DNA of 64,000 nucleotides. Source: Chitinophagaceae bacterium (GTDB taxonomy: Bacteria; Bacteroidota; Bacteroidia; Chitinophagales; Chitinophagaceae). A program made the translations under genes and the position numbers. Location: the NCBI GenBank assembly GCA_046329585.1, contig JAXLUI010000001.1, forward strand, positions 168,846-232,845, read 5' to 3'. Under the pieces are notes generated by a model. The model did no database searches. It was not told where the DNA came from and was given only the letters and a program-made list of their open reading frames with translations. The stretch's first letter is position 1. Every line of letters starts with the position of its first letter. Below are positions 1,553 through 32,978 of this stretch, piece after piece.

Positions 1553-2687
1553 TAACGCAGGTATATACGATGTTGCCATAATTGGTGGTGGGGTCGGTGG
1601 TCTAACACTAGCCATCCAATGCGCTGGTGCTGGCTATAAGACGATTCTTTTTGAAAAAGAAGCTTATCCATATCACAAGGTTTGTGGCGAATACATCAGT
1701 ATGGAAAGCTTTTCTTTCCTTCAACAGCTTGGGTTAAATCTCAGTGCGCTTAATCTGCCGGTAATAAATCGCCTTCAACTTTCCGATATTCACGGAAACC
1801 TTTACCAGTTTCAACTCCCGCTTGGCGGTTTTGGAATAAGCAGGTATAATATCGACCATAAGCTTGCGCAGATGGCTGCTGAAAAAGGGGTTACACTGCT
1901 GCAATCAACAAAGGTGACCAATATTTCTTTTGAGCACGACTGCTTTAGAATTGAAACAAGTGGGGCAACTTACCGCGCAAAGACTGCCGTCGGGGCTTTT
2001 GGCAAACGATCAAATCTTGATATCGGCTGGAAGCGTAATTTTATAACGCAAAAGCCTGATAAGCTCAATAATTGGGTTGGTGTAAAATACCACATACGCT
2101 TTCCCTTTCCCCATGCAAACATCGCTTTGCATAATTTTAAAAACGGCTATTGCGGCATCTCTAATATTGAAGATGGTCAGTGCTGTCTGTGTTATCTTAC
2201 CCGTGCGGAGAACCTGCGGGATAACGAGAATTCCATTGGAAAAATGGAGCAAAACGTACTTCGCAAAAACCCTTTGCTAAAAGAAATTTTTGACAAAGCC
2301 AGCTTCATGTATGCGCAGCCGCTTAGCATCTCGCAGGTGAATTTTTCTCCAAAAACCCTCGTTGAAAATCACATTTTATTGATTGGTGATGCGGCAGGAC
2401 TTATTACCCCGCTGTGCGGCAATGGCATGAGCATGGCAATGCATGCGGGTAAACTTGCTTTTGAAAATATCGATATGTTTTTCCGGAAAAACATATCCAG
2501 GCAGCAAATGGAAACCTCATACCAAAGTCAGTGGAAACAGCAATTCAGTAAAAGGCTATTCATCGGGCGTACCGTTCAAAAATTATTCGGCAATAATGGA
2601 ATTACCACAGGTTTCCTCCGCATTATGAGCAAGCTGCCCTGGCTTGCAAAAAAGCTTATCAGTTCCACCCACGGAAAACCATTTTAG
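1545..2687 (+). CDS. FAD-dependent oxidoreductase (geranylgeranyl-reductase / flavin monooxygenase-like family)
   Basis: N-terminal Rossmann dinucleotide-binding motif YDVAIIGGGVGGLTLAIQCAGAGYKTILFEKE. The gene overlaps the upstream methyltransferase by 8 nt. Confidence 0.75.
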   Translation: MIDNAGIYDVAIIGGGVGGLTLAIQCAGAGYKTILFEKEAYPYHKVCGEYISMESFSFLQQLGLNLSALNLPVINRLQLSDIHGNLYQFQLPLGGFGISRYNIDHKLAQMAAEKGVTLLQSTKVTNISFEHDCFRIETSGATYRAKTAVGAFGKRSNLDIGWKRNFITQKPDKLNNWVGVKYHIRFPFPHANIALHNFKNGYCGISNIEDGQCCLCYLTRAENLRDNENSIGKMEQNVLRKNPLLKEIFDKASFMYAQPLSISQVNFSPKTLVENHILLIGDAAGLITPLCGNGMSMAMHAGKLAFENIDMFFRKNISRQQMETSYQSQWKQQFSKRLFIGRTVQKLFGNNGITTGFLRIMSKLPWLAKKLISSTHGKPF

Positions 2688-2712
2688 TTTTTTGCTCCCC
2701 GTTGTTGTGAAC

Positions 2713-2732
2713 GCACAAGAGTGCGACGCAAG
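2713..2732 (-). repeat. Family-1 intergenic repeat (variant, reverse orientation)
   Basis: gcacaagagtgcgacgcaag, compared with consensus GTACAAGTGTGCGACGCAAC. Confidence 0.7.
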
Positions 2733-2808
2733 CAAAGCTTAGCAATGTTCTGGAGCCAGGTCCATAATTATTTTATTTACCCGGCACTGGTATTTCAATT
2801 GTAGTTCC

Positions 2809-2827
2809 GTTGCGTCGCACTCTTCAG
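2809..2827 (+). repeat. Family-1 intergenic repeat (forward orientation, CTTCAG variant)
   Basis: gttgcgtcgcactcttcag. It forms an inverted pair with 2713-2732. Confidence 0.7.
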
Positions 2828-6273: not shown

Positions 6274-6330
6274 CAAACGGGATTTTTTTCCTTTATTTGA
6301 GCCCATCTGACTCCTATTGACCAGGCATCC

Positions 6331-6350
6331 GTTGCGTCGCACACTTGTAC
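6331..6350 (+). repeat. Family-1 intergenic repeat, perfect consensus
   Basis: GTTGCGTCGCACACTTGTAC. Confidence 0.85.
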
Positions 6351-6613
6351 AATTAGTCATAGTTCAGCAAAAACACGAGTGCTAAGCTAATTTCCCCATA
6401 ACTTAATCTCTTCCGTGTTTTCGCTTCGGGGCTTTACAGCTATATGCTTCAATATAGGCGTGCGATCCCGGGTAAGCCTGCACCATAGCGCAGAATGCGA
6501 TGCCTTAAAATGCAAAGGCCGGCAACAAAAAAGTTTCTTCGGACAAACCACAAAATTTCCACATTTATACAGGCTGCATCAGCACATGAACGGCTGTGTA
6601 TATATTTGCCGCA

Positions 6614-9362: not shown

Positions 9363-10022
9363 ATGCAACTGACTACGGTGATTTTTGATATGGATGGGTT
9401 ACTTATCGACAGTGAACCGTTGTGGAATGAAGCGGCAGACGAGGTTTTCAGGATGTATGGCGTAAGCTTATCAGAAGAGCAGTACAATACAACCACGGGT
9501 CTACGTACGAAAGAGTTTGTGCAATGGTGGTTTCACCAGTTCAATCTTGGTGATGCCGAACATGCAAGGGCCGAAAAGCTCATCTTTGAAAAAGTGATGC
9601 AAAAAGTAGATGCCAAAGGAAGGATGATGCCGGGCGTTCATCATATCTTTCGCTTTTTTATAGAGCGCAATTTTAAAATTGGCATTGCCTCTTCTTCGCC
9701 ACAGGCACTCATCGATCTTGTTATAAAAATATGTGGCATCGGCAAATATGTAAATGGCACCGCAACCGCCGAGTATCTTCCGCATGGTAAACCGCATCCC
9801 CAGGTGTACCTCGATTGCGCTTCCACACTAAATTCCAATCCGCTCGATTGCCTTTGTTTCGAAGACTCCTTCCCCGGCATGATCGCCGCAAAAGCTGCGC
9901 GCATGAAATGCGTTGTGGTACCGCATCACAGCCAGGTAAAAGAAGAACGCTGGGCTGCAGCTGATCTAAAACTTTCCTCTTTGCAGAATTTTGGCATGCT
10001 GCATTTAAACCTTTTGCAATAG
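9363..10022 (+). CDS. HAD-IA family hydrolase (sugar-phosphatase / beta-phosphoglucomutase-like)
   Basis: HAD motif I VIFDMDGLLIDSE, motif II IGIASSS, and C-terminal FEDSFPGMIAAKAARMKCVVV. Confidence 0.7.
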   Translation: MQLTTVIFDMDGLLIDSEPLWNEAADEVFRMYGVSLSEEQYNTTTGLRTKEFVQWWFHQFNLGDAEHARAEKLIFEKVMQKVDAKGRMMPGVHHIFRFFIERNFKIGIASSSPQALIDLVIKICGIGKYVNGTATAEYLPHGKPHPQVYLDCASTLNSNPLDCLCFEDSFPGMIAAKAARMKCVVVPHHSQVKEERWAAADLKLSSLQNFGMLHLNLLQ

Positions 10023-10068
10023 GGTATTTTCTTCTGGTCCCGGCTCATGTATTACATGGCATCGCCTC

Positions 10069-10087
10069 TTGCGTCGCACACTTGTAC
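10069..10087 (+). repeat. Family-1 repeat (forward), left arm of the pair upstream of A2M-1
   Basis: ttgcgtcgcacacttgtac, preceded by catggcatcgcctc. Confidence 0.85.
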
Positions 10088-10182
10088 TGCAGAACATTGC
10101 TGAAGGCTGGAGTTTCTGAACCGGTTTTTTGTTGCTGAAATGGCTTGGGCATTTCCCGTTGTTGCTGAATCGGGAGCTAAGC

Positions 10183-10202
10183 GCACAAGTGTGCGACGCA
10201 AC
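10183..10202 (-). repeat. Family-1 repeat (reverse), right arm of the pair upstream of A2M-1
   Basis: gcacaagtgtgcgacgcaac. Confidence 0.85.
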
Positions 10203-10316
10203 AAAAGCCCAATAGATAGCACAAGCCGGGCCCAGAATGTTTTGTAAGCTGTATGTAATCCCGGGCAGATTTGCATCCTTGCGCTAATAGCTTATTTTTA
10301 AACCAATACTGCATTT

Positions 10317-13300
10317 ATGAGAAGAGAACTGCTACTCCTCGTACTCATTGCTTTTTGTTGCAGCGCCACTGCACAACACGCTGAAGACTTTCGACAAGCA
10401 TGGCATACGATCGACTCGCTGATGGTTGAAAAAGATCTTCCTGCTTCGGCGCTTGCAAAGGTCGATTCATTGTATAAAGCCGCAAAGGAGCAACACCGGG
10501 ACGACGAGATGATAAAGGCAGTTGTATACAAACTTTCAATCGACAGCAAGATTACAGAGCACAACATCAACGTTACTTACCGGTTATTGTGGAACGAAAT
10601 GAAAGATGCGACAACGCCTGTAACCAAGGCTGTTCTGCAGGCACTGCTTGCCGATAAAATCAATAAGCTTTACACGCAAAATATATGGCAAAACCAAAAC
10701 AGGAAAACGGTCCCGGGGAACAAGGACAGCGATATAACCAGTTGGAGCAATGAACAACTCGTTGCAGCAACAGACAGCCTTTACGAGGAGTCACTTTCTC
10801 AGGAAAGCCTATTACGTAACATTAATATCTCAGCCTATGCAGGCATAGTGCTGAGTGGTAATACTCCCGGGATTAGAACAACACTGTATGATGTGCTGGC
10901 GCACCAGGCACTTGACTACTACAAGACGGGGCTGCGTTATATAACTGAACCGGCTTATGCTTTTAAGCTGACAGACAAAAACTGCCTGGCTGTTACGGAT
11001 GATTTCATAAAGGCCGGCTTTTCCTCAAAAGACAGTGCATCGCATTTATTGAAATCAATTCACCTGTTCCAGCAGTTGCTGGCATTTCATCATAACGATT
11101 TAAATGCAGAAGCCTTTGTGGATGTAGCAATTGAACGCATTCTCTGGGTAAACACATTCGGTTCTTTCGACAACAAGGATGTACTTTATGTAAACGCGCT
11201 TCAGGACATTGCTGCGAAATACGCTAAAACAAGATCCGCTGCAGAGGCCTGGTTTCTTTTAGCCGACCGTGAATCTCAAAAGGCGGATTCTTATAAACCA
11301 ACCGGCGACTCGCTGAACAGGTATGGGTATATAAAAGCAAAAACAACTATCCTCGAACGGTTCAAGGCAATGCCGGATCATTGTTTGGGCAACGATGAAA
11401 TGAACGCCTTGCTTCACAGGATTACTAGCCCGGAGTTGAATACCGTAGCTGAAAATAATAATGTAGCCGGCCAGCCATTCAGACTATTGGTAAAATATAG
11501 GAACGTAGATACCCTGTATGCAAAAGTATTATCACAGCAAGATGTAAACAAAACCGCCCGTAAAAAAACTTATAACAAGTGGAGAGATTTGCCCGCAGTT
11601 AAGGCTTTGCAAACATTTGAGCAATGGCTACCGAAAACAAACGACTACCAGGAGCACAGTGTTGAGGTAAAAATAGACGCACTGCCGGTGGGCGACTACA
11701 GCATATTGTTCAGCAACAGTAAAGACTTCAACAACGATAAAGACAAACTCGTGTTGCAAACACTGAGTGTTTCGGAGCTCGCTTATATGCACAATGAATA
11801 TGACTACTTCGTGGTGAATCGGGAAACTGGGCATCCGGTCAAAGATGTGAAAGTCAGGGGAACAATTGAAGTAAAACGAAAAGGCAAAGACGACTGGAAA
11901 ACAAAAAAAATAAAACCGGTTTACACAGACTCGAATGGCCACATCGCATTACCTGTTGATCTAAAAAACAAGAACCGATATGGAGATGCAGACCTTCAGT
12001 TTTCAAAAGGAAAAGAAGTTTTATATTCTTTTGATCGGGCGTTTGGCTACAGCTACAGCAATAGTGAAGATGAGGATGACGACGAAGATGATTCAACTTA
12101 TGAAGATGATAACTCGTTCGTGCATTTTTTTACGGACAGAAGTATCTACCGTCCAGGCCAAACAGTTTATTTTAAAGGCATTGTACTCACCAAAGACCGA
12201 AAAACCCGAAAAGAAAAACTGTACCGGTATCCCGATAGTGCCGAGATAGACCTGAACGATGCCAATGGTAAAATGATCGACTCAATGTTTGTAAAAGTGA
12301 ATGAGTACGGCTCTTTCAGTGGAAAATTCCGTTTGCCTCAAAATGCGCTCACCGGTGAATTTTCTATAGACAGCTACGATTTCATGGATGGGGAGATCGA
12401 ATTCAACGTGGAAGAATATAAGCGCCCAACATTCTATATGGAATTTGATGGCATAAAAACCGCTTACCGGGTTAAAGACACGATTACTATTTCCGGCTAT
12501 ATAAAAGCCTATGCCGGTAACGCGGTCGACAACGCAAAGCTGACTTACAATGTCGAGCGGTCGGCATCCTTCCCATACCCTTACTTGTTTTGGAAAACGA
12601 GACGCCCTTATTCAGGCACGGAAGAAATCGCAACCGGTTCAGTTGACGTAGATGCAAACGGGAAATTTGAGATCAGGTTTGTTGCTATGCCCGATAGTTC
12701 TGTTGATAAGAACTCAGAACCTTTTTTCAATTTTTCGGTCGACATATCGGTAACTGATGCAAACGGTGAGACAAGGGAAGGCAAAACAAACATCAATATC
12801 GGCTATAAGTCTTTATTGTTGCAGATAACCGTTCCCGGTATAGCAGATGCCGGGAATTTTCAAAACATATTTGTTACCACAAAAAACTGCGCAGGGGAGA
12901 ATGTTCCCGCCAATGTTCTGCTAAAGGTAAGCAAATTAAAGGTTCCCTCAAAAGCCTACCGCACCCGGCAATGGGAAAGACCAGACCAGTTCATTTTCGA
13001 CAAGGCGGCCTACCAAAATTACTTTCCAAACGATGAATACGAAGCGGAAGCCGACTACCATGAATGGGTTAAAATGCCAGCCGAGGTGCTTGACACATTC
13101 AATACGGCAACGAGTTCGGCGTTCAGGATAAAACAACCCCTGCTGCAGGGCTGGTATTGCGTTGAAGCAACAACAAAAGATAATGATGGCATGGAAGTAA
13201 AAGACGTTCGCTACTTCCAGTTGTACGATATGGACGAACCAGGGCTTCCATCTCCCCAGGTGAATTTTTCTAAAGTGCTAAACAATTCGGGTTTGTCCGG

Positions 13301-16300
13301 AGACAGGATGCAGCTAATGCTTGGAACAAGCGAAAGCGATGTATTTGCCATTCAGAAATTAACCCGGCAGGGAACGGATACGACGGGTTCTTTAAATTAT
13401 ATTAACCTGGACAATGGAAAACAAAAGCTCACATATGTGCTTAAGCCTACAGACAAAGATAATCTCGGTATGTTCTACGCCTTTATTAAACACAATTGCT
13501 TTTATACAGGAGGAATGCAGGTATATATAAACGATGCCTTGAAAAACCTGCAGATAACTTATTCAACCTATCGCAATAAAACAGAACCAGGAAGCAAAGA
13601 AACCTGGTCGGTGCAGGTAACCAACCCGGCAAACTCGAAGACTGATGCGGAAGTATTAACGGCTATGTATGATGCTTCACTTGACCAGTTTAAAAAACAC
13701 GAGTGGGAGATCCCAGTTTCTGAAAGACGCACGTATATCCGCAACGAATGGCAGGCAGATAATTTTGGAAGGCAGTCATCGGATGCGAACATGCTGCCCG
13801 GTTTTATTATTACAGAGACAAAGCAGTATGCGAAGCTTGGAAAAAGTATTACGGATTTCGTTTCGGGTTATCAGCCCTTAAGCACAAGGCCGGCGGCTAT
13901 CAAGACAGCATTTAGTTTCCCGGAAAATACGCCTGCCAACTATCTCCGGATATTGGGTGTAGTAAAAAGTATGAGAGACAAAGAACCGGTTGCCGGTGTT
14001 ACCGTGCTGGCAAAAAATAACAGCATAGGCACAACTACAAACGCTGCGGGTGAATTTGCTTTAGCGGTTCCACCAAATACAGAAAGTCTAATAATGAGTT
14101 CCGTTGGGTTCCAGTCTTTAGAGGTTCGGCTTGACAAAACCACGGTCCAGGCATTTTTAAAAGAACAGTCTTCTAACCTTAACGAAGTGGTAGTAACCGG
14201 ATACGGCAGCGCATTAAAGAAAGATCTTACAGGTTCGGTGGCTGGTATCCAGGTACAGGCATTGTCAGATACTGTTTCTTTTAAGATGAAAATACGGGGT
14301 ATCGCCAGCGTAGCTGACGCCAATACGTTGCTCGTGATTGTCGACGGCGTAGTGGTTGACAAAAAGATCGGTGATATTAACACAAGCGACATCGAATTTG
14401 TAACAGTTTTAAAGGGTGCCGAAGCAGTAAATATCTATGGTACCAGCGCAGCCAGCGGGGCTATTCTTGTTACTACCAAAGAATACGCCTTGCGCAATGG
14501 AAACAAGAAAGACGAAACTCCTGTGCTGCGGGTGAGAAAAAATTTTAATGAAACCGCTTTCTTTCTCTCACAATTGCATGCCGATAGCTCGGGGAAATTT
14601 ACTTTCAGCTTCACCATGCCCGATGCATTAACACAATGGAAATGGATGACATTGGCGCATACAAAAGACTTGCAATTTGGATTGCGAAATGAAAACATCG
14701 TAACGCAAAAAACGCTGATGGTACAGCCAAACTTGCCAAGATTTTTTACACAGGACGACACGCTCTTGCTAACCACAAGAATCAGTAACCTGTCCGATTC
14801 GGTAGTCGCTGGCTCTGCTTACGTCGCATTTTTTGACGCCACGACCAACCAGCAATTGAGCAATTTTGCAAAAGCAATCGATGAACAGCAGGTGTTCAAA
14901 GTTGAGGCAGGCAGAACGACTACGATAAAGTTTCCTGTGTACATTCCAACTGGCATCATTAAACCCGTTACAATAAGAGTTATTGCAAGCGCCGGCAAAT
15001 ACAGCGACGGAGAAGAAAACACTTTGCCAGTTCTGAGCAACCGTACGCTGGTAACAGCATCCTTGCCGCTGTTTATGAAAACAGGGGGGGCAAAAAATTT
15101 CAAATTCAACAAGCTAGTGACCAACACTTCAAGCACGGCATCTACTGAAAGCCTTACGGTTGAATATACGCCAGATCCAATATGGGCTTGCATAACGTCG
15201 TTGCCTTACCTGATGGAGTTTCCGCATGAATGCGCCGAGCAAACCTTTAACCGCTTTTATGCAAACGAACTATCGTCTTATATCATTGCAACACATCCGG
15301 CAATAAAAAAAGTGCTGGAAAAATGGCGTACAGATTCCACAGCACAGCTCGGCTCCCTGGTAACGAACCCGGAACTAAAACAGGTACTGCTCAACGAAAC
15401 GCCATGGGTATTTGATGCAGGAAATGAAACCCAACAACGCAACAATCTTGTGCGCCTGCTCGATACAACGGAAAATGACAAGCAGGCAGTGGCCGCGTTG
15501 CAAAAATTAAAACAAATGCAAAAAAAAGACGGAGGCTTTGCGTGGTTTACAGGTGGCCAGTCAGATCGTTACATAACACAGTATATTTTAACAGGAATTG
15601 CAAGGTTGAAAAAAATGTATGCCGTTCCGGAAAATGCGCAAGCCATAATTGATGATATCAGTAGTAAAGCCTTAACCTACCTCGATAAGAGAACATCCGA
15701 CGATTTTGAGGCAATGCTCAAGAGAAAGGTGGATCTCAGCGCTAACCTTCTTGATCCAATCACAGTGCAATATTGGTACATGCGCAGTATGTTTGGCAGT
15801 GAAAATGAAAACGGCTTTCCTGAAAAGGCCTTCCGTTTTGCAAGGGTCCAGGCGGAAAAATACTGGGCAACGCAATCGCCTTATATGCAGGGAATGCTGG
15901 CCATCGCACTCAATAATCTCTTCCCGGTTATAAAGCCACTCACAAAAGTCAGGAACACACAACTCGATATCGTTAATTCCTTAAAAGAAAACGCGGTCAG
16001 CGACTCCGTTAAAGGAACATCCTGGAAAATTAATGACGGTTATCATTGGTACGAGTCGCCGGTAGAAATGCAGTCTTTATTGATCGAAGCATTCGACGAA
16101 ATCATACCTGGTGACAGCATTATCATAGCTATGAAGCAGTGGCTGATTATGAATAAGCAAACCAATAACTGGTCTACCACCAGGGCAACCGCAGATGCAT
16201 GCACCGCATTGCTTTCGGGCGATATAGGCATTCCTTTGCAGTCAACTGTTGTGTCAATTAAATTGGGCGACTCAACCATTGGTAATGATGCAGGAACAGC

Positions 16301-16916
16301 AGCGTATGGCGATGGCACTGGCTATCTCAGGCACCACATCGATGGAAGAAACGTGCAACCTTCTATGGGTAACATCAATGTTACAGTAACTAAAAAAGTG
16401 AATGGCAATTTTCCTGGCGTTTCCTATGGAGCTGTGTACTGGCAATATTTTGAAGACGCAGACAAAGTGACTTCTGCCAATAACGCATCGCCTTTCTTCA
16501 TATCAAAACAGTTGTTCATCGAACAAAATACTGACAAAGGCAAAGTGCTTCGGCAGATCAATGCGGACAATGAATTGAAAGTTGGCGACAAAATAATCAT
16601 TCGCCTTGTCATCAAATGCGACCGCGATATGGAATACATTCATCTTAAAGATATGCGTGCATCAGCGATGGAACCTGACAACGTATTAAGTGAGTACAAA
16701 TGGCAGGACGGAGTTGGTTACTATCAAAGCACGAAAGATGCCTCAACCAATTTCTTTATCAGCAACATCAGCAAAGGAACTTATGTGCTAGAATACCCGG
16801 TTCATCTCACACACAGTGGATCTTTTACCACCGGTATCGCCGGTATTCAATGCATGTATGCCCCGGCCTATGCCGCACACAGCGATGGAATACGCATCAA
16901 CGTGCAACCGCAATAA
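10317..16916 (+). CDS. Alpha-2-macroglobulin (MG2/A2M) family protein, 2,199 aa, with a CAEQ thioester motif and an internal SusC-like CarbopepD_reg + TonB-plug module
   Basis: Signal peptide. Repeated MG-domain starts (FFTDRSIYRPGQTVYFKG). Thioester-region motif FPHECAEQTFNRFYAN. An internal segment YLRILGVVKS...VVVTGYGSALKKDLTGSV...KMKIRGIASV...LLVIVDGVVVD...DIEFVTVLKGAEAVNIYGTSAASGAILVTTK matches a SusC N-terminal module. Confidence 0.8.
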   Translation: MRRELLLLVLIAFCCSATAQHAEDFRQAWHTIDSLMVEKDLPASALAKVDSLYKAAKEQHRDDEMIKAVVYKLSIDSKITEHNINVTYRLLWNEMKDATTPVTKAVLQALLADKINKLYTQNIWQNQNRKTVPGNKDSDITSWSNEQLVAATDSLYEESLSQESLLRNINISAYAGIVLSGNTPGIRTTLYDVLAHQALDYYKTGLRYITEPAYAFKLTDKNCLAVTDDFIKAGFSSKDSASHLLKSIHLFQQLLAFHHNDLNAEAFVDVAIERILWVNTFGSFDNKDVLYVNALQDIAAKYAKTRSAAEAWFLLADRESQKADSYKPTGDSLNRYGYIKAKTTILERFKAMPDHCLGNDEMNALLHRITSPELNTVAENNNVAGQPFRLLVKYRNVDTLYAKVLSQQDVNKTARKKTYNKWRDLPAVKALQTFEQWLPKTNDYQEHSVEVKIDALPVGDYSILFSNSKDFNNDKDKLVLQTLSVSELAYMHNEYDYFVVNRETGHPVKDVKVRGTIEVKRKGKDDWKTKKIKPVYTDSNGHIALPVDLKNKNRYGDADLQFSKGKEVLYSFDRAFGYSYSNSEDEDDDEDDSTYEDDNSFVHFFTDRSIYRPGQTVYFKGIVLTKDRKTRKEKLYRYPDSAEIDLNDANGKMIDSMFVKVNEYGSFSGKFRLPQNALTGEFSIDSYDFMDGEIEFNVEEYKRPTFYMEFDGIKTAYRVKDTITISGYIKAYAGNAVDNAKLTYNVERSASFPYPYLFWKTRRPYSGTEEIATGSVDVDANGKFEIRFVAMPDSSVDKNSEPFFNFSVDISVTDANGETREGKTNINIGYKSLLLQITVPGIADAGNFQNIFVTTKNCAGENVPANVLLKVSKLKVPSKAYRTRQWERPDQFIFDKAAYQNYFPNDEYEAEADYHEWVKMPAEVLDTFNTATSSAFRIKQPLLQGWYCVEATTKDNDGMEVKDVRYFQLYDMDEPGLPSPQVNFSKVLNNSGLSGDRMQLMLGTSESDVFAIQKLTRQGTDTTGSLNYINLDNGKQKLTYVLKPTDKDNLGMFYAFIKHNCFYTGGMQVYINDALKNLQITYSTYRNKTEPGSKETWSVQVTNPANSKTDAEVLTAMYDASLDQFKKHEWEIPVSERRTYIRNEWQADNFGRQSSDANMLPGFIITETKQYAKLGKSITDFVSGYQPLSTRPAAIKTAFSFPENTPANYLRILGVVKSMRDKEPVAGVTVLAKNNSIGTTTNAAGEFALAVPPNTESLIMSSVGFQSLEVRLDKTTVQAFLKEQSSNLNEVVVTGYGSALKKDLTGSVAGIQVQALSDTVSFKMKIRGIASVADANTLLVIVDGVVVDKKIGDINTSDIEFVTVLKGAEAVNIYGTSAASGAILVTTKEYALRNGNKKDETPVLRVRKNFNETAFFLSQLHADSSGKFTFSFTMPDALTQWKWMTLAHTKDLQFGLRNENIVTQKTLMVQPNLPRFFTQDDTLLLTTRISNLSDSVVAGSAYVAFFDATTNQQLSNFAKAIDEQQVFKVEAGRTTTIKFPVYIPTGIIKPVTIRVIASAGKYSDGEENTLPVLSNRTLVTASLPLFMKTGGAKNFKFNKLVTNTSSTASTESLTVEYTPDPIWACITSLPYLMEFPHECAEQTFNRFYANELSSYIIATHPAIKKVLEKWRTDSTAQLGSLVTNPELKQVLLNETPWVFDAGNETQQRNNLVRLLDTTENDKQAVAALQKLKQMQKKDGGFAWFTGGQSDRYITQYILTGIARLKKMYAVPENAQAIIDDISSKALTYLDKRTSDDFEAMLKRKVDLSANLLDPITVQYWYMRSMFGSENENGFPEKAFRFARVQAEKYWATQSPYMQGMLAIALNNLFPVIKPLTKVRNTQLDIVNSLKENAVSDSVKGTSWKINDGYHWYESPVEMQSLLIEAFDEIIPGDSIIIAMKQWLIMNKQTNNWSTTRATADACTALLSGDIGIPLQSTVVSIKLGDSTIGNDAGTAAYGDGTGYLRHHIDGRNVQPSMGNINVTVTKKVNGNFPGVSYGAVYWQYFEDADKVTSANNASPFFISKQLFIEQNTDKGKVLRQINADNELKVGDKIIIRLVIKCDRDMEYIHLKDMRASAMEPDNVLSEYKWQDGVGYYQSTKDASTNFFISNISKGTYVLEYPVHLTHSGSFTTGIAGIQCMYAPAYAAHSDGIRINVQPQ

Positions 16917-16988
16917 ATTTTACAAAAGCTTTTTCATTCGCCAATTGTGTTTTATGTTGCCGGCTGCAGTTTTTCATGGCATCGGCTC

Positions 16989-17007
16989 TTGCGTCGCACT
17001 CTTGTAC
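16989..17007 (+). repeat. Family-1 repeat (forward), left arm of the pair upstream of A2M-2
   Basis: ttgcgtcgcactcttgtac, preceded by catggcatcggctc. This is nearly identical to the 24-nt flank at 10055. Confidence 0.85.
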
Positions 17008-17100
17008 GGTAGCATACAAATCAGAAAAAGCCATAGTCCGCATTTATCATTTGCCGAAGCAGTTGCGGTTTGCGTCTTTGCAGAATTCCGTTCAAACCGC

Positions 17101-17118
17101 ATAAGAGTGCGACGCAAC
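17101..17118 (-). repeat. Family-1 repeat (reverse, variant), right arm of the pair upstream of A2M-2
   Basis: ataagagtgcgacgcaac. Confidence 0.7.
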
Positions 17119-17253
17119 AGTTGATGAGGGCAGTGCAAAAGCCCGGACACAAAAATTACTCGCTGTTTTTAAAATATAGCATGCGGGCTTTATGCATTTT
17201 CTTTAGCATTGCATCCTCCTAATATCACTAAATTGTGTCACCAATTTTTTTTC

Positions 17254-20200
17254 ATGAAAAGGATATTGCTGTTTGTTTTTTTGCTGACCGGGTTTGCTAA
17301 AACGATTTTTGCTCAATCAAAAGACTCCACATACAAAAAACAATGGGCGGAGATCGATTCACTGGTACTTGAAAAAGGTTTGCCAAAATCTGCCTTGAAA
17401 AATACAAATGCTTTGTATACGCAAGCCAAAGCAGAAAAGCAGCAAGATGAAGCAATTAAAGCGCTGCTTTACAGGCTGGCACTCGAACCACAGGTAACAG
17501 AAACCGATGTTAATAAGCAGATCGCGTCCATTAGTGAAGAAATCGCTGCCGCTGGTGATGAAGCCGAAGCAGCCGTGCTGAACACCATACTGGCAGCTGT
17601 GTACGAGGATTTTTTCAACAATAACTCCTACCGTTTCTACAACAGGGCCGCAACAAAAAAATTCGCCAAAGCGGATGTTAATACCTGGAGTGCGGATGAT
17701 TTTAACGATACCATTAGCAGTCTTTATAATAAAGCAATGACTGCTGCAGCCATATTACAACAGCAACCGGCAAACAGGTTTGAAGCACTGGTAATAAAAG
17801 GCAATGCCGGAAACCTTCGCCCGACATTATATGATTTGCTTGCACATAAAGCGTTAGACTTTTACAAAAACAGCAATCGCTTTGTTACAAAGCCGTCGTT
17901 TGCATATGAGATAACTGCGCCAGCAGCCCTGGCTCCTGCTGATGAATTTATCATACATCGCTTTTCATCCGTTGACAGTGCTTCTAATTTGCTACAGGCA
18001 CTTTTACTATTTCAGCAACTAACGAAATTCCACAGCAAAGATGTTGATCCGTCTGCCTATATCGATATAGATATCGAACGCCTTGAATGGGTAAAAGAAA
18101 ATAGTACAATCAATGAAACGGATTCATTATATAAAATTGCACTCGAAGCGATCACCGCAACTTTCCCGGACAATGCAGCAACATCGCAGGCATGGTATCT
18201 TTTGATAAAAATTGTCGCGGACAAGGCGGCTGAATACAATCCGTTTGGCGATACTACGCATCGCTACGGTTATGTAAAAGCAAAACAACAGATCGAAGAA
18301 AGATTGACAAAGCAACCAGCTAAATCAGAAGGCAACAGCAACATGCAGCAGTTGCTCAATGAAATTGTAAAGAAAGAATTAAAAACACAGGTAGAGAATG
18401 TAAATGTGCCAGGCCAGCCCTTCAGGATGTACGTTCAATACCGGAATGTGCAAACAATGCATCTTCGCATTATTAACGCCGCGGCGCTTGCCGGGATGCC
18501 CGGTACGGATCAATATGAAGAAGGCTACTGGAAAGCTGTTACCCAATTGCCTTACCTGACATCATCTATTCAACAACTACCTGATACAAAGGATTACCAG
18601 CAACATGCCACTGAGATAAAAATTGATCCGCTTGAGCCTGGCAGTTACGCAATACTGGCTTCATCATCTGCCAATTTTAATGACAGCACCGATAAACTTA
18701 TGCTGCAACGGTTTGATGTATCTGGCATCAGTTATATTGCCAGCAACGCCGACTATTTTATACTGAACAGGGAAACCGGTCAGCCATTAAAAAATGTAAA
18801 AGTGAAGTATGAATTCCTCCAATGGGATTACAAGGAAAGAGAATTTGTTGTAAGTAATTCAGGCAGCCTGTTGCCAGATGCCAACGGCTTTGTTACCCTG
18901 AAAGATCGTATAAAAGGAAATGACAGGAATTATGCGCTCACCATTTACCAGGGCAAGGACTCTTTGAAGACCAACCAGGATAACCGCTATGTTCCTTACA
19001 ACAACGAAAAAGACGACAAAACAACGCCACCTGATTTTGAAAAAAGGCATACCCAGTTCTATTTCTTTACCGACAGAAGTATTTACCGGCCCGGGCAAAC
19101 CGTTTATTTCAAGGCGATTGCTGTAACAAAAAATCAACAAACAGGCAAACCAATGCTGGCTTCAATAAAGGAAGCATTGAACCTGGTTTTGAAGAATACG
19201 AACGGGCAAAAAATTGATACGATCACTATTAAATTAAACAGCTACGGTTCTCTGTCCGGTTCCTTTAAATTACCGCTACAGACCCTAACCGGCAATTTTT
19301 CCATCATAGCAGAAAAATACAATGGCACTGCAAATTTTAATGTGGAAGACTATAAACGTCCTACATTTTTCGTGGAGTTTGACACGTTAAAATCGACATA
19401 CCGGCTAAACGATAGTATAAAAATAACAGGCGCTGTGAAAGCATACGCGGGGAATAACCTTGATGGCGCAAAAATTAAATTCAATGTGCACCGCGATACA
19501 AGGTTTATTTATCCATGGCTGTTTTGGCGTAAAATAAGGCCGGCTACTTCGTCCCAACAGATTGCACAGGGAGAAATTATAACGGACGCCGAAGGAAAGT
19601 TCGAAATACTTTTCGTAGCACAGCCTGACCGATCCGTCGATAGTTCCGGCGACCCGGTTTTTGATTTTAGCATTGATGCGGCAGTCACAGACATAAATGG
19701 TGAAACAAGAGATGGCAGCACCCAATTATCAGTTGGCTACAAATCGTTGCAACTACAACTCTCAGTTCCCGGCATTGCAGACCTAAACAAGTTTGATACT
19801 ATTGGAGTTACCACCGAAAATTTTTCAGGCAATAAGGTTGCCGCCAATGTAAAACTGAATATCTACCCGCTCACGGTTCCCACTGAAATAGTACGCAACC
19901 GTTATTGGGAAAGACCCGATCAGTTTGTGATGCCGAAAGATGATTACAAAAGATTATTTCCCTACGACGAATATGCTGACGAATCAGATTATCATAGCTG
20001 GGAAAAAAAAGCAAGCGTTTTTTCTGGTTCGGTAAAAACCGCGGACTCATCTTTTATAAAAATTGCAAAGGGCATTTTAAAACAAGGCTGGTATGCAATA
20101 GAAGCCGTAAGCAAAGACAAAGATGGTAACGAAGTAAAGGATGTCGCTTATACCGCGTTGTATGATGAACAATCGGCTTCACTCCCCTCGCCTCAGATCG

Positions 20201-23200
20201 AGTGGAATGCAGCTATAAAAACGGAAGGCCAGCCCGGTGAGAAAGCAAAACTGTTGCTCGGCACAAGTGATAAAGATGTTTATGTTATTCAACAATTGCA
20301 AAAGAATCGGGATGACAAGCGGGAGGATCAATACGCATATTTTAAACTCAGCAATCAGAAACAAACAATCGAAACCGAAATAACAGAACAAAGCCGCAAA
20401 GGCCTTGGCCTTTATTATGCTTTTGTAAAACACAACCGTGTTTATTCCGGTGGTATAAATGTATATGTGCCATATACTGACAAAGACCTGGACGTTGTTT
20501 ATAAGACTTACCGCAATAAAACAGAACCGGGCAGCAAAGAACAATGGACGGTTGAGGTGAAAGGGAATAAAGGAGAAAAAACAACAGCTGAATTGTTAAC
20601 TGCCATGTATGACGCATCGCTTGACCAGTTTAAGCCGCATGAATGGATTTTACCGGATTTATGGCCTGTTGGATATACCAATAACAGCTTTTTAGCCGAT
20701 GATAATTTTGCTGCAGTAAATTCAGAAGAAAATAACATCCAGGTTAACGCGCCTTATTTTGAAAAGATTTATAATGAGCTCGTTGTAAACGGAGAAGCTT
20801 TTTGGGTTAAACTCAACAGCGTGTCTTACCCTGTTGGGATGCTGTCAGAACAAAATAAGGTGGTGATGTACAACGCTCCACTGGCCCTTGAACAGGCACC
20901 AAGACGCCTGATGGTTACTAAATTTACCGCACCAAAGATCGTAGCTGACGAAGAGTTAGCTGAACCCCTGCAATCAACCGGCGATATTAGGGGCGCCGTT
21001 AAGAAGAAAGAGGTGCCATCTTTCCAGCCTCGAAAAAATTTCAACGAAACAGCCTTCTTCATCCCTGATCTGTACGCTGATACCTCAGGAAATTACAGCT
21101 TTAGTTTTACCATTCCTGAGGCGTTGACACAATGGAAGTGGATGGTCCTCGCTCATACAAAAAATCTGGCGTTTGGTTATAAACAAAAAAAGATCATTAC
21201 GCAAAAAAGCCTGATGGTTCAACCAAACCTACCCAGGTTTGTCCGCGAAGGAGACCAGATGGAAGTACCAATCAGGGTGACCAATCTTGCTGACACAATC
21301 CTGACCGGAAAAGCAACATTGCAATTATTTGACGCAATAACAAATGACCCTGTCGACGGTGCTTTTCAGAGTGTATTTCCCGACCAGTATTTTACTGTCG
21401 AACCAGGAAAAAGCAGCGAAATAAAGTTCCCAGTCAGTATTCCTTTTGGATTCAATAAACCGGTAACAATCAGAATTATTGCTGAAGCAGGCGGTTATTC
21501 AGACGGCGAAGAAAATACTTTACCATTGTTAACCAACAGGGCACTTGTTACAGAAAGCCTTCCGCTCTTTCTGCGTGGTGACGGTAGCAAGCAGTTTAAA
21601 TTTGAGAAGTTGGCCGGCAATAATTCGGCAACACTTACCAATGAAAGCATTACCGTTGAATATACGCCCAACCCTATCTGGTTTGCCATACAGGCATTAC
21701 CCTATGTAGCCGAAGCGAAAAACAATAGTGCTGAACAGGTATTTAACCGTTTTTATGCAAATACAATGGCTGCCTACCTCTTAAAACAGCACCCCCGAAT
21801 CAAGGCCGTCTTCGATAAATGGAGGGCTGATACATCTGCACTCAAAAGCAATCTTGAGAAGAACCCTGAATTAAAACAGGCACTGCTGGAAGAAACGCCA
21901 TGGATTATAGATGCTACGAATGAAACACAGCAAATGAAAAACCTGGCTATACTTTTTGACTTGTCAAATATGAGCGATGCCACGCAGGCGTCACTGCAGC
22001 AATTAAAACAAATGCAGTTGCCCGACGGTTCCTTTTCGTGGTTTAGGGGCGGTTACCCCGATAGATATATTACGCAAACTATTCTCACAGGCATAGGCAG
22101 GTTAAAAATGCTCAACGCCATTTTGCCGGATCAAACGGCAGAACTCAACGGCATTGCACTTAGGGCGCTAAACTACTCCGACAACGAGATCACCAGGGAA
22201 TATGATCTTATCGTGAAAAGCAAGGTGGATAAAAACAAAAACAACCTTTCCGCTTCTGGCATCCAATATCTTTTCATGAGAAGTTATTTTAAAGATGTTC
22301 CGCTAAAAGACAAAAATGCACATAGTTTTTATTTCTTCCAGGCAATGAAATACTGGAATACACAATCTGTTTATCTGAAAGGAATGATCGCTGCAACTTT
22401 ATTCCGTAACTATTTCAGAACGTACACCTACAAAAACATTATTCCATCCATTCTCGAGAATACAATTGAAGACCCCGCAAAGGGCATGTATTTCAAAAAC
22501 AGCCAATGGGGTTATTACTGGTATCAAAACCCTGTAGAACAGCAGTCGCTCATGATAGAATTACTTAACGAAATGCAACCGTTTTTCAAAGACGCACAAA
22601 TGAAATCTGCGGTCAACGATATGCGTACATGGCTTTTACTCAATAAACAAACAAACAATTGGAAAACAACAAAAGCCACGGCCGATGCTTGCTATGCGCT
22701 ACTGTTAAACAGTGAACATGAAATAACCGACAACAGAACAGTACAGGTGAAACTCGGAAATAAACTGCTCCCGCAGGATGCAGCCGCCGAGGGCACGGGG
22801 TATATCAAAACCCGGATTGATGGAACTGCCGTAAATAACACGCTTGGAAACATAGCGATTACAGTTAAATCAAACGACACCGCAAACCATGCGAACTCGC
22901 CTTCGTGGGGTGCTGTTTACTGGCAGTATTTTGAAGATCTTGATAAAATAACTCCCGCTGCTACTCCCCTGTCACTTAACAAAAAACTATTTATAGAAAC
23001 GAATACCGCTTCCGGCAAAGTGCTTGTCCCGGTTAACGATAATGATGAATTGAAAGTTGGTGACAAAGTAGTCATTCGTTTGGAACTTCGCAGCGACCGC
23101 AACATGGAATACCTGCACCTGAAAGATATGCGCGCCTCGGCAATGGAACCATCGAACGTGCTTAGCGGATTTAAATGGCAGGACGGCCTTGGTTACTATG

Positions 23201-23385
23201 AAGCAACAAAAGACGCCTCATCCGATTTTTTTATCGATCATCTTTCCAGGGGCACTTACGTTTTCGAATACCCATGTTACATTACGCAGCGCGGTAATTT
23301 TTCGGTAGGTATTGCAACCATTCAGTGCATGTATGCGCCCGATTTCAGCAGTCACAGTGAAGGCATCAGGATCAATGTGGAGTAA
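17254..23385 (+). CDS. Alpha-2-macroglobulin (MG2/A2M) family protein, paralog 2, about 2,043 aa. The thioester Cys is replaced (SAEQ) and there is no plug insertion.
   Basis: Signal peptide MKRILLFVFLLTGFAKTIFAQ. Collinear homology to the upstream paralog (FFTDRSIYRPGQTVYFKA, RKNFNETAFF, LTQWKWMVLAHTK, VTIRIIAEAGGYSDGEENTLP). The thioester position reads AKNNSAEQVFNRFYAN. Confidence 0.8.
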   Translation: MKRILLFVFLLTGFAKTIFAQSKDSTYKKQWAEIDSLVLEKGLPKSALKNTNALYTQAKAEKQQDEAIKALLYRLALEPQVTETDVNKQIASISEEIAAAGDEAEAAVLNTILAAVYEDFFNNNSYRFYNRAATKKFAKADVNTWSADDFNDTISSLYNKAMTAAAILQQQPANRFEALVIKGNAGNLRPTLYDLLAHKALDFYKNSNRFVTKPSFAYEITAPAALAPADEFIIHRFSSVDSASNLLQALLLFQQLTKFHSKDVDPSAYIDIDIERLEWVKENSTINETDSLYKIALEAITATFPDNAATSQAWYLLIKIVADKAAEYNPFGDTTHRYGYVKAKQQIEERLTKQPAKSEGNSNMQQLLNEIVKKELKTQVENVNVPGQPFRMYVQYRNVQTMHLRIINAAALAGMPGTDQYEEGYWKAVTQLPYLTSSIQQLPDTKDYQQHATEIKIDPLEPGSYAILASSSANFNDSTDKLMLQRFDVSGISYIASNADYFILNRETGQPLKNVKVKYEFLQWDYKEREFVVSNSGSLLPDANGFVTLKDRIKGNDRNYALTIYQGKDSLKTNQDNRYVPYNNEKDDKTTPPDFEKRHTQFYFFTDRSIYRPGQTVYFKAIAVTKNQQTGKPMLASIKEALNLVLKNTNGQKIDTITIKLNSYGSLSGSFKLPLQTLTGNFSIIAEKYNGTANFNVEDYKRPTFFVEFDTLKSTYRLNDSIKITGAVKAYAGNNLDGAKIKFNVHRDTRFIYPWLFWRKIRPATSSQQIAQGEIITDAEGKFEILFVAQPDRSVDSSGDPVFDFSIDAAVTDINGETRDGSTQLSVGYKSLQLQLSVPGIADLNKFDTIGVTTENFSGNKVAANVKLNIYPLTVPTEIVRNRYWERPDQFVMPKDDYKRLFPYDEYADESDYHSWEKKASVFSGSVKTADSSFIKIAKGILKQGWYAIEAVSKDKDGNEVKDVAYTALYDEQSASLPSPQIEWNAAIKTEGQPGEKAKLLLGTSDKDVYVIQQLQKNRDDKREDQYAYFKLSNQKQTIETEITEQSRKGLGLYYAFVKHNRVYSGGINVYVPYTDKDLDVVYKTYRNKTEPGSKEQWTVEVKGNKGEKTTAELLTAMYDASLDQFKPHEWILPDLWPVGYTNNSFLADDNFAAVNSEENNIQVNAPYFEKIYNELVVNGEAFWVKLNSVSYPVGMLSEQNKVVMYNAPLALEQAPRRLMVTKFTAPKIVADEELAEPLQSTGDIRGAVKKKEVPSFQPRKNFNETAFFIPDLYADTSGNYSFSFTIPEALTQWKWMVLAHTKNLAFGYKQKKIITQKSLMVQPNLPRFVREGDQMEVPIRVTNLADTILTGKATLQLFDAITNDPVDGAFQSVFPDQYFTVEPGKSSEIKFPVSIPFGFNKPVTIRIIAEAGGYSDGEENTLPLLTNRALVTESLPLFLRGDGSKQFKFEKLAGNNSATLTNESITVEYTPNPIWFAIQALPYVAEAKNNSAEQVFNRFYANTMAAYLLKQHPRIKAVFDKWRADTSALKSNLEKNPELKQALLEETPWIIDATNETQQMKNLAILFDLSNMSDATQASLQQLKQMQLPDGSFSWFRGGYPDRYITQTILTGIGRLKMLNAILPDQTAELNGIALRALNYSDNEITREYDLIVKSKVDKNKNNLSASGIQYLFMRSYFKDVPLKDKNAHSFYFFQAMKYWNTQSVYLKGMIAATLFRNYFRTYTYKNIIPSILENTIEDPAKGMYFKNSQWGYYWYQNPVEQQSLMIELLNEMQPFFKDAQMKSAVNDMRTWLLLNKQTNNWKTTKATADACYALLLNSEHEITDNRTVQVKLGNKLLPQDAAAEGTGYIKTRIDGTAVNNTLGNIAITVKSNDTANHANSPSWGAVYWQYFEDLDKITPAATPLSLNKKLFIETNTASGKVLVPVNDNDELKVGDKVVIRLELRSDRNMEYLHLKDMRASAMEPSNVLSGFKWQDGLGYYEATKDASSDFFIDHLSRGTYVFEYPCYITQRGNFSVGIATIQCMYAPDFSSHSEGIRINVE

Positions 23386-25310: not shown

Positions 25311-25431
25311 TTACTTAAGGCGCAGGCGTAGATCGCAAAAATAGCACATGAAATATGCGTAGTCAATGCGCTTTCAGGTCAGAAAAGGAGAAAGGACTAT
25401 TGACCGGGCAGCAGATCGCCATTCGGCCGCT

Positions 25432-25451
25432 GTTGCGTCGCACACTTGTAC
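25432..25451 (+). repeat. Family-1 repeat, perfect consensus
   Basis: GTTGCGTCGCACACTTGTAC followed by gacagcaatg. Confidence 0.85.
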
Positions 25452-25503
25452 GACAGCAATGCTGTTGAACGTAAAATTTTCATCAACAATAAAACAAACA
25501 ACC

Positions 25504-26182: not shown

Positions 26183-27175
26183 ATGATCAACGCAATTGAA
26201 AATGTAAAAAGGCCTGGATGGTTTAGCGAGCCTAAGAATGTGGCTACCACCATTATCGGCTTATCACTCTTTGCAGGATTGGGTTACCTGTTTGCTGTTT
26301 ACCTCTTGCCGTTCTTAATAACGGTTACATGGAACCTGGTAAACTTAATTGTTGGTGGCGCAGTCCTTGGGTTCTTACTCATGATCGTTACCAGCAAAAA
26401 ATTTTGGAGAGCAATAAGGTACTTCTCTGAATTTATTGCCAACTACACCATTGGTATTGCGATTGAACTAAACCCCTTCAACATTCTGCAAATGAAAATT
26501 GAACAGGGTTATAAAGATCGTAACACTTTGTACCAGCAATCAGCAAAACTGAAAGGTAAACAAAGTGAACTGGTAGATAAGTTAAGTGATAAAGAGAAGG
26601 AATTGCAACTGAATGCACAGAAAGTAAAGATTCTCCAACAGGAAAAAGCGAACCCACGGCAGATTGACTTGTATGCAAACAACATACTTCGCTGTCGTGA
26701 ATACATAGACAATGTTTCACCCATTGTTGGAGACCTGAACAAGCTGATCAAATTCTCTGAAACTGCTTATGAAGAAAGTGGAATCATGCTGGAAGATGCA
26801 AAGCTTGACCTGGACGCAAAGAAAGATCTGTATTATTCTGTAACAACTGGCTTGTCAGCTGTAACCAGCGCTATGAAGGCGTTTAAAGGCGATGATGAAC
26901 TGAACCAGGATGCCGAGAAAGCACTAAGTATATTGAAACAGCAGATTGGTGAAAAGATCGGCCACATAAAATCTGCGATAGATGTAACGCAGCGCTTCAT
27001 GGATGACAAAGTATTGGAAGACAAAGCAAAATCTGCGCAGGCTATTGAACTCATCAGCCACTTTAACCTTGACACTGACTTCAACTATAGCAACAATGCT
27101 ATCAATAACAATGCAGACAATGGTAGACTAAAAGGGGTAACCATTACAGATAAATATAGAGGTCTGCTCGAATAG
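26183..27175 (+). CDS. Hypothetical membrane protein (two N-terminal TM helices) with a long coiled-coil domain
   Basis: Hydrophobic segments TIIGLSLFAGLGYLFAVYLLPFLITV and LIVGGAVLGFLLMIVT are followed by a K/E/Q-rich coiled coil. Confidence 0.55.
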   Translation: MINAIENVKRPGWFSEPKNVATTIIGLSLFAGLGYLFAVYLLPFLITVTWNLVNLIVGGAVLGFLLMIVTSKKFWRAIRYFSEFIANYTIGIAIELNPFNILQMKIEQGYKDRNTLYQQSAKLKGKQSELVDKLSDKEKELQLNAQKVKILQQEKANPRQIDLYANNILRCREYIDNVSPIVGDLNKLIKFSETAYEESGIMLEDAKLDLDAKKDLYYSVTTGLSAVTSAMKAFKGDDELNQDAEKALSILKQQIGEKIGHIKSAIDVTQRFMDDKVLEDKAKSAQAIELISHFNLDTDFNYSNNAINNNADNGRLKGVTITDKYRGLLE

Positions 27176-32959: not shown

Positions 32960-32978
32960 ATTTCATTGCTCATGCAAA

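Follow-up and report, generated by a model that had tools for sequence, protein, structure and literature searches.

A bipartite, non-palindromic intergenic repeat unit in Chitinophagaceae and their phages

The locus and the repeat unit

The window analysed here is a 64-kb stretch of DNA from a Chitinophagaceae bacterium (contig JAXLUI010000001.1). It contains a gene for a HAD-family phosphatase followed by two genes for large alpha-2-macroglobulin proteins, A2M-1 and A2M-2. The intergenic gaps ahead of both A2M genes carry copies of a short repeat unit, and many other operons of the window carry units too. Read 5' to 3', the unit consists of a T-run, Box A (GCCNGGC), a spacer of about 23 nt, Box B ((G/C)TTGCGTCGCAC-W-CTTGTAC) and a weakly conserved AT-rich tail. 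It is asymmetric, bipartite and non-palindromic, and has a total length of 60-85 nt. Box B is identical in many Chitinophagaceae genera and in their temperate phages. We consider the unit a bipartite, non-palindromic intergenic element and a variant of the repetitive extragenic palindrome/bacterial interspersed mosaic element (REP/BIME) kind. Intergenic interspersed repeats are well studied in Proteobacteria and much less so in Bacteroidota. A search of the full-text literature by sequence and by keywords returned no description of this unit, which is apparently undescribed so far.

With up to one mismatch allowed, TTGCGTCGCAC occurs 18 times in the window, always between genes; 100 dinucleotide-preserving shuffles gave a mean of 1.32 matches and a maximum of 7. 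When these 18 copies are aligned in one orientation, they share a T-run ending in TG and GCCCGGC-like bases about 30 nt upstream of the core. Ungapped and MAFFT profiles of 194-217 pooled copies place the T-run at -41 to -32, CCNGC at -29 to -25 and the core at 0-18, followed by the weak tail; the copies from other genomes have an additional weak ttattCAGC about 30 nt downstream. The spacer is variable in sequence and constant in length. In 100 of 122 units, the centre of Box A lies 32-33 bp from the centre of the palindromic part of Box B (TGCGTCGCA), which corresponds to three helical turns. There are 19-20 consecutive invariant bases in the unit. An earlier, sequence-only reading of this DNA had proposed a modular unit of about 20 nt rather than fixed termini of a MITE (a miniature transposable element with inverted repeats at its ends). 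The modular part of that proposal stands; the length does not, as both the profiles and the phage sites with and without a unit (see below), which delimit it at about 59 and 82 nt, give a bipartite unit of 60-85 nt.

No consensus RNA structure was found by RNAalifold on either strand of 217 units. The only hairpin that Box B could form, CGCAC-wCTT-GTGCG, has a stem of 4-5 bp at most, and position frequencies show A at position 17 in 79% of units, which places a C-A mismatch within this stem. The units are not palindromes, and the BIME-like character ascribed to them earlier has to be given up in this respect. Rfam returned no match at gathering score over the whole window and none at E<=10 over 9950-10350. 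Bacteroidetes are among the carriers of CGTC-tagged REPs, which combine an unpaired CGTC head with a stem of 8-9 bp, a loop of 4-5 nt and a tail of CCA, and to which no transposase is dedicated (Di Nocera et al. 2013, PMC3733652). Box B likewise contains CGTC; however, the 8-9-bp stem required for membership of that class is absent, the possible stem being short and mismatched as described above.

Three other assignments of the unit were rejected. A small open reading frame (ORF) starting at the wTG that follows the T-run does not fit: the distance from wTG to the core ranges from -36 to -33, and the three forward frames are open equally often (31%). The Bacteroidetes promoter consensus is -33 TTTG / -7 TAnnTTTG, and the sigma-54 promoter consensus is TGGCAC-N5-TTGC. 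Compared by eye with these consensus sequences, the T-run has no A at the position required for the former and, at half of the adjacent genes, faces the other way, and resemblance to the latter is limited to a spacer subfamily with ATGGCATC, mostly with N6 spacing.

A search with nhmmer, using a profile hidden Markov model built from the copies, found about 25 units in the 64 kb, or one per 2.6 kb, all of them intergenic (Table 1). The profile adds seven or eight degenerate or partial units to the 18 core copies. Eight of those 18 lie outside close pairs, and the profile search found degenerate partners for several of the eight. The forward unit of the pair before A2M-1 (pair 1) begins 4 nt past the stop codon of the HAD gene and has the T-run, a Box A reading CCCGGC, a spacer with CATGGCATCGCCTC, and Box B. 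The reverse unit of this pair has its A-run end 75 nt ahead of the A2M-1 start codon. At 29165-29200, a forward unit is followed by a short degenerate inverted copy of the core (CACACTTGTAC gtca GTACAAGTGG), making a pair with a 4-nt loop.

Table 1. Genes, repeat units and inverted pairs of the window (positions in the 64-kb stretch; E, nhmmer E-value unless stated)
Feature	Position	Strand	Remarks
HAD-family phosphatase gene	9363..10022	+	Pfam PF00702/PF13419; anchor for orthologous loci
A2M-1	10317..16916	+	2199 aa; MG2, A2M, bMG10 plus CarboxypepD_reg, Plug
A2M-2	17254..23385	+	2043 aa; ortholog of the single A2M gene after HAD in L124 (67% aa identity)
Reverse unit, T-run end abutting that of next unit (back to back)	2683..2775	-	E=2.5e-16; core 2721-2731
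Forward unit between two convergent genes	2766..2825	+	E=2.3e-12; core 2810-2820
Forward unit, core at 6332	6292..6381	+	weak candidate partner 6499-6538 (-), E=0.15
Forward unit, pair 1	10026..10099	+	E=4.5e-13; exact core 10069-10079
Pair 1 interior, ordinary intergenic DNA	10100..10154		no blastn match to other interiors; GC 0.495 over 10086-10184
Reverse unit, pair 1	10155..10241	-	E=1.7e-15; exact core 10191-10201
Forward unit, pair 2	16946..17027	+	E=4.9e-15; core 16989-16999; about 30 nt past A2M-1 stop codon
Reverse unit, pair 2	17070..17160	-	E=6.9e-13; core 17107-17117; orthologous to L124 reverse unit
Partial unit (core part only) after A2M-2 stop codon	23454..23484	-	E=0.006
Forward unit, core at 25433	25398..25479	+	E=3.7e-14
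Degenerate full-length reverse unit, partner of 25398+ across two genes	27174..27265	-	E=3.3e-5
Forward unit, core at 29165, begins at stop codon of OmpA-family gene	29124..29209	+	profile search, copy alignment
Reverse unit, core at 30962, ends 27 nt upstream of next start codon	30930..31016	-	E=1.5e-16
Forward unit of pair 34127/34325	34093..34170	+	profile search
Reverse unit of pair 34127/34325	34296..34385	-	profile search
Forward unit, core at 37718	37676..37748	+	E=2.4e-16
Degenerate partner (5' half only) of 37676+ unit	38235-38283	-	E=9.5e-4
Forward unit, core at 43279	43234..43324	+	weak partner 43421-43468 (-), E=0.019
Degenerate reverse unit, ends 25 nt upstream of start codon at 55192	55085..55167	-	E=1.1e-5
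Forward unit of pair 57691/57823	57648..57733	+	profile search
Reverse unit of pair 57691/57823, ends 16 nt upstream of start codon at 57897	57807..57881	-	profile search
Forward unit, core at 60608	60566..60651	+	profile search
Partial reverse unit, core with one mismatch	60920..60957	-	core scan, profile search
Degenerate reverse unit	61782..61867	-	E=8.1e-5
Inverted pair	2717-2731 / 2810-2824		arm 15 nt, complementarity 100%, gap 78 nt
Inverted pair	10069-10085 / 10185-10201		arm 17 nt, complementarity 100%, gap 99 nt
Inverted pair	16980-17010 / 17096-17126		arm 31 nt, complementarity 84%, gap 85 nt
Inverted pair	34127-34143 / 34328-34344		arm 17 nt, complementarity 94%, gap 184 nt
Inverted pair	57678-57711 / 57822-57855		arm 34 nt, complementarity 82%, gap 110 nt

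Inverted pairs are two independent units

The sequence-only reading had described five inverted pairs and treated the pair, arms and interior together, as a MITE- or BIME-like element that may have been duplicated with each A2M gene. An inverted-repeat scan of the window recovered all five pairs, and there is a looser sixth (60608+/60947-, 340 bp apart, with one mismatch in one arm). The long-range stem expected when a pair is transcribed through also formed: three forward-reverse pair regions folded as RNA each gave one long hairpin (z = -2.7 to -5.4 against shuffles). The interiors had been called unrelated and AT-rich. They are unrelated, as all-against-all blastn found no mutual similarity at E<1e-3 among the interiors of 15 close pairs; they are not AT-rich, with a GC content of 0.41-0.50 compared to 0.438 over the whole window and 0.413 over intergenic DNA. 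One supposed interior is not an interior at all: in the alignment of copies, the 76 bp within the 2713/2809 pair prove to be the 5' halves of two back-to-back units.

An inverted pair consists of two units that are independent of each other and share one intergenic gap, with ordinary intergenic DNA between them. Spacing between paired units varies from 87 to 340 bp. The arms of a pair do not covary; they agree at the three variable positions of Box B in 12/17, 5/17 and 4/17 cases, where chance would give about 9, 11 and 9. Over all loci, gaps with a single unit number 199 (107 forward, 92 reverse) and gaps with a forward-reverse pair number 14. MITEs such as Correia/NEMIS and ERIC are also small and intergenic, lie near gene ends, and have inverted ends that can form RNA hairpins. 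Correia and ERIC elements are, as far as is known, alike along their whole length. MITEs have a shared interior and target-site duplications, neither of which is seen for the units. Close pairs do have complementary arms of 15-34 nt resembling MITE-type terminal inverted repeats, but these arms are whole units, and most units elsewhere stand alone. The unrelated interiors, the lack of covariation between arms, the single-unit gaps and the insertion of single units in phages without target-site duplication (see below) together argue that the pair is neither a MITE nor a doublet of the REPIN type (REP doublet that forms a hairpin).

There is a pair ahead of each A2M gene, as the earlier reading stated, and both share the near-identical 24-nt left flank CATGGCATCG(C/G)CTCTTGCGTCGCAC, which lies at 10055 and 16975 directly before the core of the forward arms. 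Co-duplication of pair and gene is not borne out. The A2M-1 and A2M-2 proteins are only 42-51% identical to each other. A related locus, L124, has a HAD gene 90% identical to that of the window and directly after it only an ortholog of A2M-2 (67% identical), yet a forward-reverse pair is still found in the gap. A block of 112 nt upstream of A2M-2 is 82% conserved in L124, and the reverse unit is equally distant from this block in both; the interior of the pair is not conserved between these orthologous pairs. The flank belongs to the ATGGCATC spacer type, which other genomes carry in 16 units at 15 loci; the dozen listed first (L008 to L106) come from the genome scan, and two of the 16 units have the exact 14-mer. 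In L124 this spacer type is in the opposite arm of the orthologous pair. Judged by these comparisons, the shared flank represents a spacer subfamily that crosses genera, and the units have no special link with A2M. The view of the pair as one element can draw on the five to six close pairs in the window, on the shared flank, and on the predominance of forward-then-reverse order among close pairs (15 vs 2). Set against the unrelated and variably spaced interiors, the many single units, the pair retained in L124 beside A2M-2 alone and the wide occurrence of the flank, it is very improbable.

It could also be asked whether the arms are recombinase sites that invert the interior, as in invertons. 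Inverted arms of 17-34 nt do flank segments of 80-180 bp upstream of operons, including those for large secreted or surface proteins. However, in three independent assemblies spanning both A2M pairs, the pair regions are identical to the window and oriented as there, and no inversion between the arms was seen, although these are consensus assemblies in which a minor orientation could be hidden. The density of units is far too high for invertons, the arms also flank the housekeeping genes trpA, trpB, pgk and atpD, and the interiors are not conserved between orthologs. We regard this explanation as extremely improbable.

Several minor features were noted at the A2M genes. A2M-1 joins CarboxypepD_reg and Plug domains, typical of the N-terminus of TonB-dependent receptors, to MG2, A2M and bMG10; CarboxypepD_reg and Plug are absent from A2M-2. 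This fusion is unusual for a bacterial alpha-2-macroglobulin. Public gene calls place ORFs of 74 aa and 45 aa on the minus strand over the two pair regions (10052-10276 and 16897-17034). They have no Pfam match and are probably artefacts caused by the repeat. Two independent assemblies of the source organism (L004 and L005) stop inside the forward core of pair 1, at about 10083-10084 of the window; the repeat may be the cause of such contig breaks.

Distribution, conservation and gain or loss

Sequence identical to the window is present in contigs of metagenome-assembled genomes (MAGs) of uncultured Chitinophagaceae (GCA_002296895.1, GCA_002478885.1) and in several metagenome assemblies. A scan of one genome per species with the query TTGCGTCGCACNCTTG matched at least 117 loci. 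A near full-length unit is present in 114 of the 117 loci listed among these, and 84 of the 86 with titles belong to Chitinophagaceae or to unclassified Chitinophagales or Bacteroidota MAGs. The genera named among the matches listed are Segetibacter, Ferruginibacter, Flavisolibacter, Terrimonas, Limnovirga, Foetidibacter, Cnuella, Flavihumibacter and Ilyomonas; of the three loci without a unit, two belong to other phyla and are chance matches. In metagenomes, the 19-mer sharply marks this lineage and its phages. No match to the unit consensus was found among 72,556 plasmids. Not every member of the family has the unit: within 20.6 kb around the HAD ortholog, Sediminibacterium sp. KACHI17 and Danxiaibacter flavus have none. 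Past the stop codon of more distant HAD orthologs there is no unit either, and one of these orthologs is followed by a canonical terminator instead. In L229 (2155-2290), a canonical bidirectional terminator after the HAD ortholog (72% identical) takes exactly the place of the window's forward unit; this is suggestive, but the pooled comparison of gene tails (see below) shows no association.

In the pooled loci, 213 of 219 cores lie outside long ORFs and the two orientations are about equally common (124:112). An exact core common to a family, at high density, in both orientations and with inverted pairs is also what characterises the DNA uptake sequences (DUS) of Neisseriaceae and the uptake signal sequences (USS) of Pasteurellaceae, which tag family DNA for a competence receptor. 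DUS and USS differ in being cores of 9-12 nt that also occur inside genes, whereas the unit here spans about 60 nt in two parts, with its boxes 32 bp apart, avoids coding DNA, and is oriented to gene ends with alternating neighbours. A phage carries units at host-like density, and we know of no description of competence in Chitinophagaceae. An uptake signal is a highly improbable explanation. Integron attC sites and gene cassettes were rejected too, since the flanked genes are large housekeeping genes that are syntenic between species; no integrase was found among the 10 window ORFs scanned or the called genes of the overlapping locus L001, all of which are ordinary. A parent transposon was likewise rejected, given the housekeeping genes between units and the lack of a plasmid match.

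Units are also found in phages. The pattern occurs in 97 stretches of IMG/VR contigs, among which the profile search found 67 near full-length units. Two of the viral loci, L136 and L169, are parts of one contig of 36.9 kb; L136 encodes an integrase, terminase gpA, a lambda-type portal protein, a capsid protein and a tail sheath protein. By this gene content the contig is that of a genuine temperate phage. The exact core matches at seven places between its genes, and most of these units begin at stop codons. A search for related phages with the portal protein returned only this contig; related phages were obtained by all-against-all blastn of the viral loci.

These phages provide two sites at which a unit is present in some relatives and absent from another. 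In L136 and L212, a unit of about 59 nt lies between the stop codon of the integrase gene and the start codon of the terminase gene; in L137 this junction reads TAA-AAATAA-ATG, and the filled site of the L136 type reads TAA-[unit]-AAAAATG. In L131, L157 and L223, a unit of 82 nt including the T-run lies between two genes that in L172 are joined as TAA-C-ATG. Neither filled site has a target duplication. The two sites indicate that gain or loss concerns one unit at a time, as a discrete module. Mobility, for which a check was proposed earlier, is seen here as presence or absence of single units, without target-site duplications. In L169 (7268-7849), an ORF opens with a full-length unit as its first 20 codons, which read MNHSIKTLLIFSCVALLCAC and resemble a lipoprotein signal peptide; this unit may have been co-opted as coding sequence.

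L125 and L126 are syntenic contigs of two related organisms in which the four-fold degenerate sites of HAD and purC are 47-54% identical. All three of their units (3/3) are orthologously placed. No base differs in Box A or in the 25-27 nt around Box B, save for the variable W of one unit, while the spacer and tail have diverged. Similarly, the window and L124 (four-fold identity 0.48) both keep the forward-reverse pair in the gap upstream of A2M-2. By our estimate, the chance that 27 neutral sites all stay identical at about 50% identity is of the order of 1e-8 per unit, which argues for selection or concerted evolution acting on the units. The pattern of identity in these placed units points to strong purifying selection on both boxes.

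A second repeat was seen in L126 (9700-10600), where a decayed unit downstream of HAD is interrupted by a tandem array of about 900 bp (period about 140 nt, motif CGTCATTGCGAAGC...GCAATCTCC). The array is absent from the syntenic region of L125 (9661-9967) and looks like a second, unrelated repeat family.

Orientation and possible function

Units are oriented with respect to gene ends. In the pooled loci, it is the T-run side that faces the closer gene, and the median distance between core and gene tail is 70 nt. Within a gap, forward units lie closer to the left gene and reverse units to the right one. This accounts for the forward-then-reverse order of 15/17 close pairs. The tendency to inverted neighbours reported by the sequence-only reading was confirmed. 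The gene-end rule accounts for the order within one gap and not for the order across a gene. A role as a substitute for intrinsic terminators was rejected: a canonical terminator is found at 12/111 gene tails with a unit and at 77/565 without one (p=0.54). Among the strongest terminator-like matches listed in the window, two could be placed in intergenic gaps, at 2851-2878 (-) and 32976-33003 (+).

The distance of 32-33 bp between box centres suggests that a protein binds the unit as double-stranded DNA. Both boxes are short interrupted palindromes; with centres three helical turns apart, they would be bound on one face of the helix. We infer, at about even confidence, that the unit is such a one-faced site, read by a conserved sequence-specific protein, and that this would account for both its spread and its retention. 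The binder could be a transposase-derived factor or a nucleoid or boundary protein; it would spread the unit and give the host a reason to retain it, as for REP/BIME in enterobacteria. Any host function of the units is likewise putative. The REP/BIME of Enterobacteriaceae, with their gyrase, IHF and Pol I sites, are similar in that they are high-copy and extragenic, have a family-wide consensus and alternating neighbours, are likely recognised by proteins on DNA, and can form stems when transcribed through. They differ in structure. A REP is an imperfect palindrome of 20-40 nt, whereas the unit has no fold and is bipartite with boxes 32-33 bp apart; BIME linkers are short, conserved and of fixed types, whereas unrelated DNA of 87-340 bp lies between the units here. 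The unit departs from the REP/MITE pattern in its lack of a palindrome, its boxes in helical register, its core that is invariant at near-saturated synonymous divergence, its presence in phages and its alternation across genes. If a protein does read the unit, then a lineage-wide organiser or mobiliser of intergenic DNA awaits discovery.

Several observations weigh against a protein site of this kind. We identified no binding protein or transposase for the units, and 19-20 invariant bases in a row exceed a typical protein half-site. Decayed units exist, which means that not all copies are maintained. The insertion or loss events number two, both are in phages, and each could be a gain or a loss. 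The genes between neighbouring units (trp genes, pgk, atpD, guaB, ABC transporters and others of this kind) are ordinary housekeeping genes, and the anchor regions of Sediminibacterium and Danxiaibacter that have no unit make a general housekeeping role unlikely. Finally, independent protein sites do not predict a preference for opposite orientation, and this preference is strong. Neighbouring units within 3 kb are in opposite rather than the same orientation by 70:11. The ratio is 17:0 for distances under 400 bp, 19:2 for 400-1500 bp, 34:9 for 1500-3000 bp and 17:17 over 3 kb. It holds across genes: where single-unit gaps lie either side of one gene, the order is reverse-forward in 14 cases, forward-reverse in 12, reverse-reverse in 2 and forward-forward in 0 (26:2). 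In the window, the order including degenerate copies is almost perfectly forward, reverse, forward, reverse, with about three exceptions in 24 steps, one of them the partial unit after A2M-2. In L084, six units with orientations -,+,-,+,-,+ lie between trp genes that are all on one strand. We cannot explain this alternation. Avoidance of deletions fails, as next-nearest units are still direct repeats, and so does duplicative inversion, as the genes remain co-oriented (L084).

Alternation is what would be expected if the units acted at the RNA level, through pairing of opposite neighbours in the transcript as a hairpin in one gap or a panhandle across a gene. The duplex of about 20 bp would be an RNase III site or a protective stem, and as every unit would have to pair with both neighbours, the sequence would be frozen. 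The counts within 3 kb and across single genes, together with the L084 example, agree with this, as do the predicted bipartite hairpins, which have Box B and Box A stems, the start of forward units a few nucleotides from stop codons, and the small number of canonical terminators in the gaps of the window. However, the arms of pairs show no covariation, and positions -1 and 17 mismatch more often than by chance. Complementarity would permit drift specific to each pair, whereas Box B is invariant across genera; an internal loop does not need a spacer of constant length; and canonical terminators are neither enriched nor depleted at units. The reverse unit before A2M-2 lies upstream of the conserved 112-nt block, which is a promoter or leader, and may be outside the transcript. 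Taken together, an RNA-level role is unlikely.

A further possibility, which together with RNA pairing is the main rival of the protein site, is a purely selfish element of the REP/REPIN type, mobilised by a single-copy transposase encoded elsewhere, with no host function and conserved through replacement or gene conversion. The two phage sites with and without a unit and without target duplication, the presence in phage genomes, the patchy occurrence among genera, the decayed copies and the spacer subfamilies common to several genera all fit such an element. So does comparison with the REPINs and their REP-associated tyrosine transposases (RAYTs) described by Bertels and Rainey, which are reported in a preprint to be vertically inherited and long-lived (bioRxiv 10.1101/2022.05.22.493013). 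REPINs also occur as doublets and singlets, lack target duplications and are non-autonomous. They differ in that they replicate as a doublet hairpin of fixed spacing, whereas here single units are inserted and the arms are independent. The units have no hairpin that Y1/RAYT enzymes would recognise, and no RAYT gene or other transposase was seen adjoining them among the genes between units in loci of about 8 kb. Under neutral decay, both boxes could not have stayed intact in orthologous units where synonymous sites are near saturation. We hold a purely selfish origin to be unlikely.

More speculatively, the units might be orientation-dependent boundary elements, in which inverted neighbours bracket single genes or operons through a lineage-specific DNA-bridging or roadblock protein or through a universal RNA 'zipper' by which the ends of any cistron could pair. 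Such elements would explain both the alternation and a 20-nt sequence that is frozen across the family and copied into phages. In the protein version they would be a bacterial counterpart of orientation-paired insulator sites. We consider this rather unlikely at present.

One further structure in the window is unrelated to the unit. At 48503-48541, between convergent genes, there is a near-perfect hairpin of 19 nt (AATATGATCGCCACCTCTG / CATAGGTGGCGATCATATT) with a 1-nt loop.

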